DNA from: Vulcanimicrobiota bacterium | Lineage (GTDB): Bacteria > Vulcanimicrobiota > Vulcanimicrobiia > Vulcanimicrobiales > Vulcanimicrobiaceae | Direction: 5' to 3' | Length of the DNA: 64,000 bases | NCBI GenBank assembly: GCA_963714015.1 | Contig: OY970223.1 | Location: 992,001 to 1,056,000, forward strand | In this document: positions 1,823 through 8,000 of the stretch, in pieces | Layout of the letters: every line of letters starts with the position of its first letter | Numbering within the stretch: the stretch's first letter is position 1 | Position numbers and translations under genes: made by a program | The notes under the pieces: model-generated | The model's input: only the letters and a program-made list of their open reading frames with translations | Database searches by the model: none | What the model was told of the DNA's origin: nothing

Positions 1823-2380
1823 GTGAAGAACGCCGGCGCATCGGACCTCGAGATCGCGTTCGCGGCGCGCGAGCCGTGGGCGCTCGAGGCGCTGTACGTT
1901 GAGCACGCGCGGACGTTTTACACAGCCGCATTCGCCGTTCTGCGCAACGGCGAAGACGCGCAGGATTGCGTGCATGACGTGCTGCTGCGCATATGGCATA
2001 ATACGTCGGCGTTCACTCCGGGCAAGGGCGCGCTCAAGGCTTTCGTAGCCGTGTGCATTCGAAACGAAGCGGTGAGTCGCGTGCGCTTGCGCGGCCGAGG
2101 ATCGGAACTCGAGCGGCGAATCGTACGCAGAGCTGCGGAACAGCCGCTCCAGGATCCCTTTTCGTCCGTCGATCCGATCGAACGAAATCGTTTGCAACAG
2201 GCGATCGCCGAACTTTCGGAGCCGCAGCGCAGCGTTATCGTTCTTTCGTACTTCAATTGCCTTACCCACCGCGAAATTGCCGAACGTTTAGGCGAACCTA
2301 TCGGCACGATCAAAAGCCGGCTCTCGGCGGCATTGCACCGCCTTTCGGGCCGCCTGAAGAGAGAATACGAGTATGAGTGA
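1823..2380 (+). CDS. ECF RNA polymerase sigma factor
   Basis: DAQDCVHDVLLRIW region 2; THREIAERLGEPIGTIKSRL region 4. Confidence 0.93.
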   Translation: MKNAGASDLEIAFAAREPWALEALYVEHARTFYTAAFAVLRNGEDAQDCVHDVLLRIWHNTSAFTPGKGALKAFVAVCIRNEAVSRVRLRGRGSELERRIVRRAAEQPLQDPFSSVDPIERNRLQQAIAELSEPQRSVIVLSYFNCLTHREIAERLGEPIGTIKSRLSAALHRLSGRLKREYEYE

Positions 2381-3038
2381 AGCCGAAGCACACGTGGCGG
2401 ATCGGGCCGAACTCTATGCCCTTGGTTCGCTCACGCCGGCCGAAACGGCGCAGCTGCGCGCGCACCTCACGCAATGCGAGCGCTGCCGCAGCATTGTAAA
2501 CGATGCCGAGGCGGCGGTAACGGCAATGATTGAAGCGGACGACCAATACGATCCGCCGGGCTCGCTTGGCCGCCGCATAGCGGCTTCCGCGCGCCCACGG
2601 TCGCGCGTGCAGGTGCTGCAGTGGAGCGCTCTAGCGGCTGCGCTGATCCTGTGGATCGGTCCCGCGATGTGGTTCTATACGCATACGCGGCAGCAAGCGG
2701 CAACGCTGAGCACACAGTCCGCCGCCATCGGCGCCTTGCTGCACAGTCATTTCGTCCACGCGCCGTTCTCACCGATCGAGGCGGGGGCGCCTGCCGCGAA
2801 GGTGATCTTCTCGGCAAAGGGCCATTGGTTGTACGTGCTGGTGGCGGCCCCCGCCCGCGATTTGCAAATCGGTACGCTTCGAAACGGACGGCTGCTGATT
2901 CTGGGAAATCCCCAAGACGTTGGCGGATATGCGGCGTTCTACGATACGGCGGCGTCAGGAATCGACAACGTCGTCATCGTTCGCAACGGCCGGGCCGTGG
3001 CTCGCGCGGCAATTGTGCGGCGGAAAGGCGGTGAATGA
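2373..3038 (+). CDS. Membrane anti-sigma factor with zinc-binding HxxxCxxC (RskA-like)
   Basis: HLTQCERC motif, one TM helix, overlaps the sigma gene stop. Confidence 0.85.
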   Translation: MSEAEAHVADRAELYALGSLTPAETAQLRAHLTQCERCRSIVNDAEAAVTAMIEADDQYDPPGSLGRRIAASARPRSRVQVLQWSALAAALILWIGPAMWFYTHTRQQAATLSTQSAAIGALLHSHFVHAPFSPIEAGAPAAKVIFSAKGHWLYVLVAAPARDLQIGTLRNGRLLILGNPQDVGGYAAFYDTAASGIDNVVIVRNGRAVARAAIVRRKGGE

Positions 3039-3976
3039 TCTCGGAAACCACAATCGATCGTGCGGCCATCGCTTCTGCAGCGCAGGCCCTCGAGCCGTAC
3101 GTGCGCCGCACGCCGGTCATACGCGCGGACGGACGCGACTTCGGGATGTCCGCCGCAGCGGTTCATTTCAAGCTCGAGCAGCTTCAGCACGCGGCCTCGT
3201 TCAAGACTCGGGGTGCTTTCGCCAACCTGCTTTCGAGAGAGGTACCGGAGTGTGGTGTCGTTGCGGCCTCCGGCGGCAATCATGGCGCAGCCGTAGCTTA
3301 CGCCGCAATGGTGCTCGGAATCCCGGCAAAGATTTTTGTCCCCACCGTTTCCTCACCGGTGAAAATCGATCGCATTCGGCGGTATGGTGCGCAGTTGGTC
3401 GTCGGCGGCGATCGGTATGCTGACGCGCTGGCCGCAAGCGAAGAATGGATCGTTCAGTCGGGTGCGTTGCCGGTGCACGCGTTCGACCATCCGCAGACTT
3501 TGATCGGTCAAGGAACGCTGGGCAAAGAATTGGAGGAACAAATTGAGGGGATCGACACGGTTTTGGTTCCGGTCGGCGGCGGAGGATTGATCGGCGGCAT
3601 CGCCGCCTGGTTCTCGGGAGGCGCGCGAATCGTCGGCGTCGAGCCCGAAGGGGCACCGACGCTCACGCATGCGCTTGCCGCCGGTGTGCCGGTCGACGCA
3701 CCAGCTGGGAGCATCGCGAACGATTCGCTCGCGCCGCGGCGCGTCGGTGAATTGATGTTTGAGATCGCTCAGCGCTATGTGGAGCGCACGGTCCTGGTCA
3801 GTGACGACGAGATCGTCGCTGCACAGCACGGACTGTGGCAGAACCTCACCGTCGTTGCCGAGCCGGGAGGCGCCGCTGCCTTCGCAGCCCTTCTTTCCGG
3901 ACGCTACTCCGTGCAAGCCGGCGAGCGCGTGGCTGTAATAGTGAGCGGCGGCAACACACCGGCCGTGTGCTTGTGA
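3035..3976 (+). CDS. PLP-dependent threonine/serine dehydratase
   Basis: SFKTRG, SGGNHG, VGGGGLIGG, SGGN motifs. Confidence 0.92.
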   Translation: MISETTIDRAAIASAAQALEPYVRRTPVIRADGRDFGMSAAAVHFKLEQLQHAASFKTRGAFANLLSREVPECGVVAASGGNHGAAVAYAAMVLGIPAKIFVPTVSSPVKIDRIRRYGAQLVVGGDRYADALAASEEWIVQSGALPVHAFDHPQTLIGQGTLGKELEEQIEGIDTVLVPVGGGGLIGGIAAWFSGGARIVGVEPEGAPTLTHALAAGVPVDAPAGSIANDSLAPRRVGELMFEIAQRYVERTVLVSDDEIVAAQHGLWQNLTVVAEPGGAAAFAALLSGRYSVQAGERVAVIVSGGNTPAVCL

Positions 3977-4020: not shown

Positions 4021-4401
4021 ATGATTCAACTTCTTAGAACCCTCGCATTTGCCGTCGCGGGAATAATCGCCGCAACGGCCGCACTTCCCGCATCGGCGCA
4101 AAATAGCGGTCCGGGCAACGGTCCGCCCGGCGGAAAGTACCGTGATTGTCACGGATACGTGCGCCATGTTTCACTCGAGAACGTGCGCGTTCACTGCATC
4201 GACGGAACGCCGGCGGACATATCGTTCTTATCCTGGCCCAAGTTCGTCAGTCTTCCGACCGGCAAGACGATGGAATCCAAAGATCTCAAGCCGGGCACGC
4301 CGGTCCACGTGGTCTTTACGCAGTCATTAGGTATCCGGCACGCGTACAAAGTGTACGTAGCCAATCCGAACGGGCACGGCCTGTACGGCTTTAAGACCTA
4401 G
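4021..4401 (+). CDS. Secreted hypothetical protein
   Basis: GGAGG RBS, signal peptide, terminator downstream. Confidence 0.7.
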   Translation: MIQLLRTLAFAVAGIIAATAALPASAQNSGPGNGPPGGKYRDCHGYVRHVSLENVRVHCIDGTPADISFLSWPKFVSLPTGKTMESKDLKPGTPVHVVFTQSLGIRHAYKVYVANPNGHGLYGFKT

Positions 4402-4419
4402 ACCGTAATCTACAGCGAT

Positions 4420-4450
4420 CGAAAGCGGCGGCCGAAGGCTGCCGCTTTCG
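4420..4450. terminator. Terminator-like hairpin
   Basis: CGAAAGCGGCGGCC-GAA-GGCTGCCGCTTTCG. Confidence 0.75.
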
Positions 4451-4588
4451 TGCGCGCGCCCGGCGGCGGTTGAAGCGGCACGCAAGGTCCACCCGGCGTT
4501 CCGGCAGAGTAATCCGGCAAGCTAAGCAAGCGCTTCCGCCCGATCGATCTCAAAAGGTTGCTCTGCGGTCGCCGTGAAGGGACGTATC

Positions 4589-5243
4589 GTGCGCGCCCCG
4601 GGGAGACTGCCCAAGCCGCTTTCTTTAGTCGTGGAGGCGATTTTCTGTGCCGCCGCGATAGCGAGCGTGTGCGCTCACTTTGCCATCGATGTCATCGGCG
4701 ATTTTGCGCTTCGGCACGATAGTCTATGACGACATGGTCCACGATTCTCGCGAAGTCGTTGCACTGATTGCGATCTTGATCGCGGTCGTGCTCTTCTCTC
4801 GCGTGCTTCGCGCCTGTTGCGAAAGAGCCGCGGCCGGCAGCAAGCAGGCTGTAACAATTCTCCCAGGCGCTCGCTTCGCCGTCTTGTTTACCGCTGCAGT
4901 AAGCGCGCTTTCCTGTGGCATCGTTCCGCTGATGGAGTGCTTCGACGGCGCCCTGAACGGCGCAAGCATGCCGGAATTGGCGGATGCGTTCGGGGGTTCG
5001 CTGGTGTTGGGACTCGGAACGACGATAGTTTGCGCGGCGATCGTCGCGTTGGCAGTCGTTGTCGCGGCGCGCTGGCTGCTCTCGCATCGGCACACTATCG
5101 CGACCCTACTCGAGACGCTTCTGCAGATAGATCGCGGACGCTCTCCCGAGCCGCGTTTCATTCACTGCACGCTCGATTTTGCCGCTTCTCATCGGCTCGC
5201 GCTGCTCGCGGTTCATGGATCGAAGCGCGGGCCGCCGCTCTAA
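4589..5243 (+). CDS. Multi-pass membrane leader protein ending in RGPP (candidate arrest peptide); one extra base near 4722
   Basis: GTG at 4589 after GAAGGG gives MRAPG...CAHFAIDVIGDFALRHD, which joins YDDMVHDSRE... of ORF 4680..5243 if one base is removed; about 4 hydrophobic segments; C-terminus HGSKRGPPL*. Confidence 0.7.
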
Positions 5244-5291
5244 GCACGTAAGCTCCTCTCTCGTTCACCCAAGTCGTGCCTGGAGACTCAC

Positions 5292-8000
5292 ATGCTATGC
5301 CTTCGTGCATCGCGTGCGCTTTGTGCGCTTGCGATCGCGCTCCTTTCTACGGTTCCGGCGCAGGCCGAACCGCGTTTATCCGGTGGCAGCATAACGGGCG
5401 TCGTCGACGACGCAGCCACCGGCCTTCCCGTTCCCAACGTGGACGTCGGCGTTATTCATGCGAACGTTTCGGTTCACACGGACGCGGCGGGCCGATTTGT
5501 CATTCCGACTGTCCATGAGGGAACGTATCGCGTCAACTTGACGCGCGACGGATATCAGCCGGCTGTATCGGAGCCCATCGCCGTGGACGACTCGCCCGTC
5601 GAGGTTACGCTGACGATTCAGCGCGCCGCCTCGGATCTGCACGTGATCGCCGTGACGACTGCCCGAGCGAAAGATGCGCTTCAGCAGTCGAGCACTTTCA
5701 CCAAAACGCTCAATTCTGAGGAGCTGCAACAAGAGGGCATCGTTCGGGCTGCAGACGCGCTGCGCACACTGCCGGGCGTCAACAACGGCATTACCGGAGA
5801 TACGGCCGCGCTTTCCGACGACGTGCAACTCAGTCTTCGCGGTATCGGCACGCTCGAGACGGAAGCGGCGATTGACGGCCATCCGATCGCGTACGGTATA
5901 AAAGACGGCTTCAACTATCAGCTCTCGCCCGTCTTTCCTTACCGCGACATCTCGGTGCTTTACGGCTCCGGCGGGAGCGATTTGATGGGAGTCAACGCCA
6001 TCGGAGGAGTCGTCAATTTTCAAACGCTCGATCCGACGCCCGTCAGCGCAGTAAACGTTACGCAAGGGTACGGAACGTTCGACCAGCTCTCTACGAGCAT
6101 CACTGCGACCGGCACGGCGAATAAGCTCGGATATGCCGCTGCGTACGGCGTAGCGGGCCTCGACGGCCCGTTCAACGACGCGACGTTCTATCAAGCGGGA
6201 GCAGCGTTTGACCAGTCTGTGCCCTCCGGACCAATCCACGATCTCGGTGTGTATTCCGACGACTCCGGAGAAACGACGCGCGCGGGACTGTTGAAGCTTC
6301 AGTACAACTTCTCGCCAAGCAGCAACGTGACGTTTGCCTCCGTGGACGAAAATCGTTGGGTCAACAAAGCCGGCAACGGCGACGGCGATTATCTGGGGTA
6401 TGCGCCGGCGCTCGCTTTCGGCAATCTGCTTCTTTCCCAGTACAACCCGGAAAATTATCCGCGGCTTCCCGCTTGCCCGAAAGGAACATTCGCCGGTACG
6501 AACGCGAACGGCAGTCCTAACGGCTACGGACCGAATGGACAGCCTGACGGCGGAGTAACGTGCCAAACTCCGCAGCAGTATGCGCAGTTCAATACCGGCT
6601 GGGACGGAGCCGGAGCGTCATGGCAATCGCTCAAGCTGTTCGACAACTCCGTCGACTATCGTCTCTCCACTCAGCGCTCGGCGATACGGCTCGGCGTATT
6701 CGACAGTTATTATGAAAACTTGGTGGATAGAACGTTCATGCTGCCTTTCTTCAGCACACCCGGAGATGCCGGATCGTGGCAGAACTTCGGCGTCAACGAA
6801 GCGGGAACAATTGCCAGCGACGATCTCGTCGGCAGAAACAACGACTTCGAATTTGGAACGTCATACCTAAACAACGCTTACTTCACGTACGTCAAGAATG
6901 CGCTGAAGGGATCGCCCTTCGTCACCGAAACGGCCTATTTCATCCGCGACGCATTTCGCCCGCAAGCCTCGCCGCTCTCGGCGTACTTGAACCTATGGGC
7001 AAAGCACTCAACTGCGACGAATACTTCGTATCTCGACTCGCGGCTGGCTGCCGTATACCGTTTGAACTCGCGCAACATTCTGCGCGCCTCCGCCGGATCG
7101 ACGACGACGCAGCCCAGTCAAAACATGCTGGACCAGCAATTCATCGAATCGGCGCCCGGCGGAGCGGGCGGCGGCACGCCAATCGGCTGCGGGAGTCTCA
7201 ACTCAGTCGGAAGCGCTCCATCGACGACGTTGAAACCGGAAGAAGGCGTTGACGAAGATCTGGCTTACACGCACCGCTGGCAGGGTGATTCGCAGACCGA
7301 ACTTACCTTGTACAACACGAACGTTTACGATAAGCTCTATTCGACCACGGTTCCGCTTTCCTCGATCGGAACAGGCTTTATTCCGCCGGCGTACTTGACG
7401 CAAGTCGAAGCGGCGATCGCCGGCAAGTGCGGTACCGCCGGCGCGTTCGACCTGCTCGGAGTGACGGGCAATGCGAACGTCGGGACGCTTCGCGCAGAAG
7501 GAATCGATCTCAGCGGCCGCGCCCGAATCAGCCGTCCATTCTATTTGGACTACGACTGGACGCTGACTTCTACGGCCTTGATAAATGCCAATCAGCAGCT
7601 GCTTCAGAACAACCTCACTTACGTCATCGGCAGTCAGCTTCCGCATCTACCTCTCCACACGTTCTCTGCCGCAGCGGACTACACGTTCGTAAACGGCGTC
7701 GACGCTAGATACATGCTATATACGGTTTCAGCGGGCAACACCAAATCGCTTCCGGCGTATGACTACTCCGATCTAAGCCTTTCGGCACCCGTCGGGCGGG
7801 GTGCGAAGCTGACTGCTATGGTTCAAAATCTGTTCAACCAATGGGGAAGCATCGCCGGTTTGCGTTACGAAGGCGTGCCCTTGGCGCTCAACAGCTACGC
7901 TGCGCCGAGTGCATATGCTCCCTATACCGGAGCAGATGCAACGGAGCAGTTTGGACTGCCGTACCGCAGCGTGTACTTCAGCCTCTCAATAACGCGGTAA
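5292..8000 (+). CDS. TonB-dependent receptor with N-terminal carboxypeptidase-regulatory-like domain
   Basis: Signal peptide; GSITGVV..GLPVPNV N-domain; plug (DALRTLPGV, LRG, IDGHP, GGVVN); LKPE and NLFN barrel motifs; beta-strand C-terminus. Confidence 0.9.
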   Translation: MLCLRASRALCALAIALLSTVPAQAEPRLSGGSITGVVDDAATGLPVPNVDVGVIHANVSVHTDAAGRFVIPTVHEGTYRVNLTRDGYQPAVSEPIAVDDSPVEVTLTIQRAASDLHVIAVTTARAKDALQQSSTFTKTLNSEELQQEGIVRAADALRTLPGVNNGITGDTAALSDDVQLSLRGIGTLETEAAIDGHPIAYGIKDGFNYQLSPVFPYRDISVLYGSGGSDLMGVNAIGGVVNFQTLDPTPVSAVNVTQGYGTFDQLSTSITATGTANKLGYAAAYGVAGLDGPFNDATFYQAGAAFDQSVPSGPIHDLGVYSDDSGETTRAGLLKLQYNFSPSSNVTFASVDENRWVNKAGNGDGDYLGYAPALAFGNLLLSQYNPENYPRLPACPKGTFAGTNANGSPNGYGPNGQPDGGVTCQTPQQYAQFNTGWDGAGASWQSLKLFDNSVDYRLSTQRSAIRLGVFDSYYENLVDRTFMLPFFSTPGDAGSWQNFGVNEAGTIASDDLVGRNNDFEFGTSYLNNAYFTYVKNALKGSPFVTETAYFIRDAFRPQASPLSAYLNLWAKHSTATNTSYLDSRLAAVYRLNSRNILRASAGSTTTQPSQNMLDQQFIESAPGGAGGGTPIGCGSLNSVGSAPSTTLKPEEGVDEDLAYTHRWQGDSQTELTLYNTNVYDKLYSTTVPLSSIGTGFIPPAYLTQVEAAIAGKCGTAGAFDLLGVTGNANVGTLRAEGIDLSGRARISRPFYLDYDWTLTSTALINANQQLLQNNLTYVIGSQLPHLPLHTFSAAADYTFVNGVDARYMLYTVSAGNTKSLPAYDYSDLSLSAPVGRGAKLTAMVQNLFNQWGSIAGLRYEGVPLALNSYAAPSAYAPYTGADATEQFGLPYRSVYFSLSITR

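Follow-up and report, generated by a model that had tools for sequence, protein, structure and literature searches.

The window analysed here is a stretch of 64,000 nucleotides from a Vulcanimicrobiota bacterium (assembly GCA_963714015.1, contig OY970223.1, positions 992,001 to 1,056,000 of the forward strand). Its subject is a gene pair on the plus strand: a gene for a small membrane protein ending in the motif R-G-P-P, called the sensor below after its predicted role, followed directly by a gene for a TonB-dependent receptor (TBDR). Sequence comparison suggests that the sensor is probably a cis-acting translation-arrest regulator of the following TBDR gene; we infer the stalling, the direction of regulation and the signal. 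The N-terminal piece of the sensor gene (4589..4723, plus strand) starts at one of two candidate GTG codons, at 4589 (with AAGGGA 6 nt upstream) or at 4574, matches the family hidden Markov model with E = 1.6e-14, and encodes the first transmembrane (TM) segment, one face of which bears a conserved H-x3-D-x3-D, and the beginning of periplasmic loop 1. A supernumerary base at 4724, most likely an assembly indel error, then shifts the frame by +1 between the Ser and the Tyr of D-S-Y-D, and the C-terminal piece (4725..5243, plus strand) encodes the other TM segments (TM2 to TM4), then an amphipathic helix on the cytoplasmic side and a tail that is rich in Arg and disordered.

As an earlier note on this DNA had stated, the open reading frame (ORF) closes with K-R-G-P-P-L-stop (AAG CGC GGG CCG CCG CTC TAA, 5223-5243; the two residues before it are G-S), and the stop codon lies 48 nt before the receptor ATG at 5292. 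The R-G-P-P codons, CGC GGG CCG CCG (5226..5237), are the predicted arrest site, at which the first Pro would occupy the P site and the second the A site. The helix described in the same note is also present in the sequence: CTCTAAGCACG (5238-5248) can pair with CGTGCCTGGAG (5275-5285) at 10 of 11 positions, with one G.U pair and one A/C mismatch. Its 5' arm, CUCUAAGCACG (5238..5248), is made up of the Leu codon, the stop codon and 5 nt and lies within the footprint of a ribosome stalled at 5232-5237, and its 3' arm (5275..5285) contains the receptor's Shine-Dalgarno sequence (SD), GGAG, at 5282-5285, 6 nt before the ATG. An alternative anti-SD core, CUCC at 5253..5256, is used by the minimum-free-energy fold and lies outside that footprint. 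The candidate regulated gene (5292..8000, plus strand) encodes a TBDR with a signal peptide, a CarboxypepD_reg domain and a Plug domain.

Terminal motif, membrane domain and receptor pairing in the family

A word-indexed search with a 187-aa piece of the sensor returned 16 relatives, unnamed or labelled 'hypothetical' and belonging to Eremiobacterota wherever they were labelled, and R-[G/A]-P-P was present in all 15 full-length homologues of this first round. Searching 1.84 billion cluster representatives with a 15-sequence profile yielded 270 clusters at E <= 0.001, 96 of them at E <= 1e-30. Among 401 Eremiobacterota genomes searched, 146 (window genome included) had a match to the family; with the window genome excluded, matches were found in 140 of 296 genomes of the window's own taxonomic family and in 5 of 30 genomes from a single further family of its class, and none was seen in the other 19 families of the phylum sampled. 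Matching genomes carry one to five copies, some of them in tandem, 3.2-3.5 kb apart, and sensor-receptor-sensor-receptor arrays on a single strand were observed at G269:C97, G234:C1, G210:C27, G120:C2, G111:C46 and others. Typical members are 200-235 aa long (about 215), and they form an unannotated family with four predicted TM segments: no Pfam family was matched by more than one of 116 members, the two window pieces had no Pfam family, NCBIfam gave none for the sensor, and the ESM Atlas returned only unnamed clusters, mostly from Vulcanimicrobiota. A match of the sensor to DUF3487 (E = 0.019) was below the cut-off and was rejected.

Among representatives of 50%-identity clusters, from which the window's own protein was excluded, 140 of 149 carry the motif (83 RGPP, 57 RAPP). 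The other nine are fragments, matched by the profile no further than position 179 of 216, so that all 140 representatives whose match reaches the C-terminus have it. The same holds for all 47 non-window loci with a family hit that were fetched, two weak hits without a profile hit (L015 and L017) having been dropped; counts over these loci overstate independent support, because 30 of the 47 come from one genus. In an alignment of 116 sequences with a mean column identity of 33%, R207, P209 and P210 are invariant. The motif Arg is preceded by Lys in 92 of 140 members, a looser L-A-R-R-x-x-K lies ahead of the core, and a median of five residues follows the two prolines, the single residue of the window copy being the minimum. 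A crude ORF set of the window genome (2857 ORFs, 888,000 aa) contains RGPP 5 times, RAPP 7 times, AGPP 23 times and AAPP 51 times, and the window ORF is the only one among the 2857 with RGPP or RAPP in its last 20 residues. According to the consulted part of PMC12992588, RAPP and RGPP are the strongest, most versatile and most robust arrest cores, are refractory to EF-P and under-represented in proteomes, and show enrichment towards the C-terminal ends of small proteins, secreted or membrane-bound, that are encoded upstream of TBDR genes; a row of its supplement lists TBDRs as the top downstream class of RAPP ORFs (5450, against 722 for AAPP). The sensor family fits the description of such arrest peptides in having a terminal motif, fewer than 300 aa with TM segments and a downstream gene on the same strand. 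By sequence it is thus a member of the RAPP/RGPP class that includes ApdA, ApdP and CruR, with stalling predicted.

The earlier note had counted about four TM segments, a count upheld by family hydropathy and by a structure model. Positive charges cluster at the N-terminus, in the loop between TM2 and TM3 and in the tail, and by the positive-inside rule both termini are therefore predicted to be cytoplasmic. The AlphaFold2 model of the homologue P0003, computed with 116 aligned sequences, has a mean pLDDT of 83.7 and a pTM of 0.75, with helices at 5-34, 46-75, 88-116, 132-159 and 161-176 and a disordered tail of about 28 residues from position 188. In P0003 numbering, D28, D41, H45, D113 and G129 are invariant in the 116-sequence alignment, and H24, D32, D38, Y40, S47, R48, M109, G130 and S131 nearly so; given N-in topology, these residues all fall in loop 1 or at those ends of TM1, TM3 and TM4 that face the periplasm. 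The stretch rich in His and Asp that had been singled out from the window alone is the most conserved part of the family, whereas the Cys residues mentioned with it are only partly conserved, and CxxC occurs in only 6 of 140 members, at scattered positions. From the conserved GGS to the arrest Arg the distance is 72-77 residues in all 116 sequences, across a linker of poorly conserved sequence. TM4 ends about 46-50 residues before the arrest point, with a variation of at most 5 residues across the family, so the whole domain would lie just outside the ribosome at the stall.

Foldseek found nothing in the PDB at E <= 0.001 for the sensor model. VIA-align placed permease bundles of the FtsX/MacB type in 11 of its top 14 rows (BceB, FtsX, YbbP, MacB, HrtB, YtrF or LolC) with Z scores of 5.5-8.3, under the tool's meaningful level for helical bundles; these scores, the best of which is Z 8.3 (rmsd 5.9 over 146 residues), are in the range that the tool gives for unrelated helical bundles. 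Like these permeases, the sensor has a predicted four-helix bundle with both termini inside; unlike them, it has no FtsX Pfam match in any of the 116 members, no large periplasmic domain and no partner ATPase gene nearby.

Adjacency to a TBDR gene, which the earlier note had reported for the window, extends to the homologues. With the window receptor as tblastn query, 46 of the 47 non-window loci proved to have a TBDR homologue directly downstream, on the same strand (identity 25-70%); the exception is L016, which is degenerate and contains internal stops. The receptor start is 63-115 nt away from the Arg codon, and 63-72 nt away in 35 of 47 loci, window included. Beyond the receptor, 12 extended loci showed no recurrent partner: a Zn-dependent dehydrogenase was found in two, YceI in one, GH20 in two, an amino-acid permease in one, and others besides. 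The conserved unit is therefore the gene pair, and these neighbours give no clue to the ligand. The receptors themselves are diverse, those of paralogous modules being only 25-30% identical to each other, and they also occur without a sensor. In one genome (G011), three sensor copies with the same conserved residues stand beside receptors that are 69%, 29% and 29% identical to the window's. Since the conserved site is the same next to very different receptors, the cue would be one common to all paralogues and not a receptor-specific substrate. A hard-ligand metal such as iron is a first guess from the set of potential ligand residues, and the metal sensing that the earlier note had proposed as one possibility is likewise conjecture.

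The window receptor is 902 aa long. Its Plug domain (PF07715, E = 4.8e-11) scores above the curated Pfam cut-off, NCBIfam TonB subfamilies match the plug region only and indicate no substrate, no Pfam barrel model was matched at E <= 0.1, and comparison by sequence with solved structures gave no match. It ends in S-I-T-R, not in the aromatic residue usual for outer-membrane barrels. Its closest homologue in the same genus (52% identity; G001:C61:17000-18800, L083) has no sensor; the gene upstream of it encodes a membrane protein and is divergently oriented. The window module is closer (67-70%) to modules of other genera than to this same-genus homologue, which suggests patchy loss of the module or its transfer within the family.

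Shine-Dalgarno complementarity in the leader and the proposed mechanism

In the following, leader positions are counted from the motif's Arg codon (R). The anti-SD core CUCC is present within R+3..R+30 in 46 of 47 loci, window included, as compared with 54 of 658 control windows (8%) of the same length from the same ORFs. It starts at R+7 in 34 loci, where it is built from the two proline codons, and lies at R+19 or nearer, inside the footprint of a stalled ribosome, in 43 of 47. The first of these codons is CCU in 35 of 47 loci, whereas CCU makes up 7% of the 1518 other Pro codons in these loci, and where the Pro codons are CCG or CCC a CUCC follows some codons later (for example L014, L020 and L049). 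The best complement to GGAG begins at R+7 in 30 of 45 loci. The stem between stop codon and SD that had been proposed for the window therefore holds for the family in part: an SD-complementary element stands at or shortly after the arrest codons in 46 of 47 loci, but the exact helix is not conserved, and the element consists mostly of the Pro-Pro codons. None of the computational tests of the note's refuting conditions went against its interpretation, which has support at the level of the family.

Duplexes between the arrest window and the SD have a mean energy of -16.2 kcal/mol, against -11.3 kcal/mol for controls, and rank in the best 5% of their own controls in 20 of 47 loci and in the best 10% in 27. 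All 16 homologue leaders that were folded pair the SD with a CUCC-type element in their minimum-energy fold; these leaders were chosen by hand (10 diverse and 6 from the large genus, some for a visible helix), and their z scores range from +0.3 to -5.4, with 8 of 16 at or below -2.5. The three orthologues closest to the window copy (receptor identity 64-70%) have leaders with z scores of -4.6, -4.9 and -3.5, in which the R-G-P-P codons pair with both the SD and the GUG start. Gapless pairing beyond the core is modestly raised across 34 distinct arm pairs (3.21, against 2.78 +/- 0.12 with shuffled partners, of which 1 in 1000 came up to the observed figure, and against 2.0-2.9 in slid registers). 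No consensus structure emerged when 36 leaders were aligned with MAFFT and given to RNAalifold, the SD arm being misaligned by one or two columns and the anti-SD offsets varying. When a stalled ribosome was mimicked by forcing the mRNA single-stranded up to R+21, the median probability of an unpaired SD rose from 0.006 to 0.25 and stayed at 0.006 with a control block of equal size. In this thermodynamic model, SD unmasking is specific but partial.

From these features a mechanism can be proposed in which an inner-membrane protein of about 215 aa, with four TM segments and both termini in the cytoplasm, would serve as an arrest sensor for the TBDR encoded next to it. A ribosome reaching R-[G/A]-P-P would stall while its P site is occupied by Arg-Gly/Ala-Pro-tRNA and its A site by Pro-tRNA, as shown for ApdA and ApdP, at a moment when all four TM helices would be outside the ribosome. 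On naked mRNA the receptor SD would be paired with CUCC, mostly the Pro-Pro codons themselves (CCU-CCU); the stalled ribosome would keep CUCC in its decoding centre or mRNA channel, and the SD would thereby be freed and the receptor translated. Once the arrest is released, the helix would re-form and receptor translation would be switched off. Release may be driven by a pulling or folding force that arises as the domain assembles or as its periplasm-facing His/Asp/Tyr/Met/Glu site is filled.

Arrest could also be real and its output transcriptional, as in CruR of Bordetella pertussis. CruR is a 145-aa exported DUF2946 protein encoded upstream of the TBDR gene bfrG, with a CXXC and, 45 residues away, RAPP at its C-terminus; its RAPP arrest blocks Rho, so that the TBDR gene is transcribed, and copper releases the arrest and leads to Rho-dependent termination (consulted part of PMC9426467). 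Applied to the sensor family, the stalled ribosome would keep Rho off a C-rich leader, release would lead to termination, and the SD pairing would be secondary. The segment from the two prolines to the receptor start is indeed rich in C and poor in G: C has the same share as in the ORF body (0.35 in both), and G has 0.21 against 0.33 there. The untranslated gap, however, is short: it measures 48 nt in the window and between 30 and 80 nt in 42 of 47 loci, as compared with 162 bp for CruR, and the placement of the anti-SD element together with the rare CCU codons is explained specifically by SD masking and not by Rho. In five of the 47 loci (L002, L003, L004, L005 and L018), moreover, there is no stop near the motif and the sensor frame runs 107-319 nt past the receptor start, leaving no ribosome-free RNA for Rho. 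We consider a Rho-dependent output unlikely. It was also observed that in these five loci a ribosome released from the arrest would translate across the receptor initiation site in another frame.

A reading without any regulatory arrest would make the sensor an ordinary inner-membrane partner of the receptor in uptake or signalling, with K-R-[G/A]-P-P as a motif of the protein that serves in interaction, processing or anchoring, and the SD pairing as a mere sign of the translational coupling that is ordinary in GC-rich operons. Such a role would suit the conserved and confidently folded four-TM domain and the resemblance, below the meaningful level, of its helix arrangement to FtsX/MacB-type bundles, and the SD, predicted to be paired in 46 of 47 leaders, would often be paired in GC-rich RNA in any case. 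It would leave unexplained why the second position of the motif is only Gly or Ala, exactly the residues that give robust arrest (consulted part of PMC12992588), why the motif sits in a disordered tail a median of five residues from the end, and why the anti-SD element overlaps the motif's own codons through a rare codon choice; nor does any Pfam or NCBIfam family back another function. We therefore regard this reading as quite improbable.

Several results weigh against an arrest that unmasks the SD, some of them from the window's own leader. The fold of 5223-5300 is no more stable than expected (z = -0.26, with 67 of 200 shuffles as good), and the duplex between the arm at 5238-5248 and the SD region, at -14.4 kcal/mol, is equalled by 24% of the control windows taken from the sensor ORF. 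The window CUCC, which the minimum-energy fold uses in place of the arm at 5238-5248, lies at R+27, beyond the stalled-ribosome footprint, and a simulated stalled ribosome raises the predicted SD exposure only from 0.00 to 0.06. The earlier note had a stalled ribosome covering the 5' arm and freeing the SD: a ribosome with the first Pro in its P site would indeed have a footprint reaching to about 5247, over that arm, and SD-masking in the window is possible for this reason, but the helix is weak there and little unmasking is predicted. Support for an SD-masking helix thus comes from the family and not from the window copy alone. In the family, too, predicted unmasking is partial, the median of 0.25 being accompanied by values above 0.5 in only 3 of 47 loci, and 30 of these 47 come from one genus. 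To these points may be added that the known TBDR-linked relative, CruR, acts via Rho and not via SD masking, that RAPP-type arrest may depend on the ribosome species, Streptomyces peptides being mostly read through by E. coli ribosomes (consulted part of PMC12992588), and that a conserved, confidently folded four-TM domain suggests that the finished protein may have a job of its own.

Integrity and surroundings of the window's own copy

In the window, frame one of the sensor gene (4574..4729) ends with H-D-S-L-stop (4715-4729), and from 4725 onwards frame two (4680..5243) carries on with Y D D M V H D S. In homologues, a single frame gives A-H-x-A-I-D-V-x-G-D-x-x-L-x-x-D-S-Y-D-x-x-x-H-x-S-R. 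Since DSYD is uninterrupted in them, base 4724 (or 4723) is supernumerary, and the extra base that had been suspected near 4722 is thereby placed. For an estimate of how frequent such shifts are, 184 long ORFs, taken from 18 stretches of a same-genus genome, were compared by tblastn with the window assembly, an orthologue being defined by at least 70% identity over at least 120 aa; of the 100 ORFs with an orthologue, 10 showed a total of 11 frame changes between neighbouring alignment pieces, over about 40,000 aligned residues, in non-homopolymer contexts, which corresponds to an apparent indel rate of about one per 11 kb. The assembly is a single contig of 3.56 Mb and is 89.6% complete. Frequent frame changes and low completeness for a single contig make an artefact at 4724 much likelier than a real mutation, and the frameshift is very likely an assembly indel error. 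Frameshift and pseudogene calls elsewhere in the window genome should be read with apparently frequent single-base indels in mind. Within 4300-5600, two public soil-metagenome contig sets (7-9% of sampled words) cover 4454-4604 and 5357-5519, with 4724 outside both; among the public data sets listed for the locus there was none of RNA. A programmed +1 frameshift at CUA-UGA-C, resembling that of prfB, was rejected: there is no SD-like stimulator upstream, Leu would replace the near-invariant Tyr, and the arrangement occurs in no homologue.

If the frameshift were real, the window sensor would be a true pseudogene, and the receptor would be either constitutively masked or under the control of a truncated product re-initiated at ATG 4734. 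Besides the frameshift in the sequence as given, this would account for the window copy having the weakest leader fold of its orthologue group, the shortest tail and the most distant CUCC, and for the absence of family matches from two same-genus genomes searched (95% and 94% complete). Against it stand the frame changes in one tenth of the orthologous ORFs and the low completeness, which make an indel error several times likelier a priori, and the fact that both window pieces otherwise retain every conserved residue. A pseudogene is accordingly an improbable explanation.

Upstream of the pair, three overlapping or abutting genes occupy 1823-3976 on the plus strand and code for an ECF-type sigma factor with Sigma70_r2/r4 domains (1823-2380), an anti-sigma factor with a zf-HC2 domain (2373-3038) and a PLP-dependent enzyme (PALP, 3035-3976); no tie of these genes to the sensor-receptor pair was seen in other genomes. 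They are followed on the same strand by a gene for a secreted-looking protein of 126 aa (4021-4401) with no Pfam or NCBIfam family and by a GC-rich hairpin at about 4421-4450, which probably terminates the transcription unit of the 126-aa gene ahead of the sensor gene. A promoter scan of 4350-5400 found no promoter-like site, and terminator-like sites there were at the level of shuffled sequence. An Rfam scan of 4300-5500 gave nothing close to a gathering score.

Relation to known arrest peptides and significance

SecM-secA and MifM-yidC2 are systems in which a stalled ribosome disrupts a helix that sequesters the SD of the next gene, and in which release depends on the nascent chain at the membrane. 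The output logic predicted for the sensor family, SD unmasking, is the same. Its arrest core, however, is RxPP, and its downstream gene encodes a transport receptor instead of localisation machinery, so that the sensor would not be a feedback monitor of Sec or YidC. With the ApdA/ApdP class (Sakiyama 2021; Morici 2024; Fujiwara 2025) it has in common a core motif at the C-terminus, a length below 300 aa, TM segments or a signal for localisation, and a gene downstream on the same strand; ApdA and ApdP differ in preceding components of the Sec machinery and in having poorly conserved N-terminal parts, whereas that of the sensor family is a conserved multi-pass domain.

The closest parallel in gene arrangement is CruR. 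As far as the consulted part of PMC9426467 describes it, the two systems share an envelope-targeted upstream ORF with RxPP a few residues before the stop and a TBDR gene directly downstream, a fixed spacing between sensing element and motif (45 residues in CruR; in the sensor family 72-77 residues from GGS, or about 46-50 from where TM4 ends) and, in the proposed logic, an arrest that keeps the receptor on until a signal, in CruR the ligand, releases it. The different architecture that the earlier note had expected is borne out. None of the 116 sensor members matches DUF2946 (PF11162) at E <= 0.1, nor do the window pieces; four TM helices with a cytoplasmic C-terminus take the place of a signal peptide, and invariant periplasm-facing Asp and His residues that of a conserved CXXC. 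RGPP is as common as RAPP in the sensor family, and the leader is short and has an anti-SD element contained in the Pro codons, features that speak for SD unmasking rather than Rho-dependent termination. TBDR-linked RAPP upstream proteins almost all have a signal sequence, according to the consulted part of PMC12992588. An Eremiobacterota entry was not found in the searched part of that paper's supplement, though the genes may still be present, unremarked, in the rest of it, and our literature search yielded nothing that links Eremiobacterota with RGPP, a query for KRGPP/KRAPP arrest having returned unrelated work only. By sequence, the sensor domain of the family is new within the RxPP arrest-peptide class, the TBDR enrichment of which has already been reported.

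More tentatively, the family may represent a new kind of co-translational envelope sensor, in which the four-helix domain would insert during the R-[G/A]-P-P pause, read a periplasmic cue with its invariant His/Asp/Tyr/Met/Glu site and signal to the peptidyl-transferase centre by way of a linker of about 48 residues that serves as a ruler. The cue would then be one shared by the receptors, such as iron, another hard-ligand metal or an energised membrane. A family of this kind would be a natural test case for the question whether an RxPP arrest can be released when a multi-pass membrane domain inserts or folds in response to a ligand, and its design is unusually legible in that the Pro-Pro arrest codons double as the anti-SD element.

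RAPP/RGPP arrest peptides have only recently been recognised as widespread, and for a transport receptor only CruR has been worked out. The sensor family would add a second, unrelated sensor architecture for the same task, and with it a phylum dominated by uncultured members in which almost nothing is known about gene regulation. For annotation, about 270 clusters of 'hypothetical proteins' would become a regulatory family tied to TBDRs, with the role predicted here. If the more tentative reading, that of a co-translational envelope sensor for a shared cue, is true, Eremiobacterota would possess a Fur-independent translational master switch for a set of TonB-dependent importers, present in up to five copies per genome.

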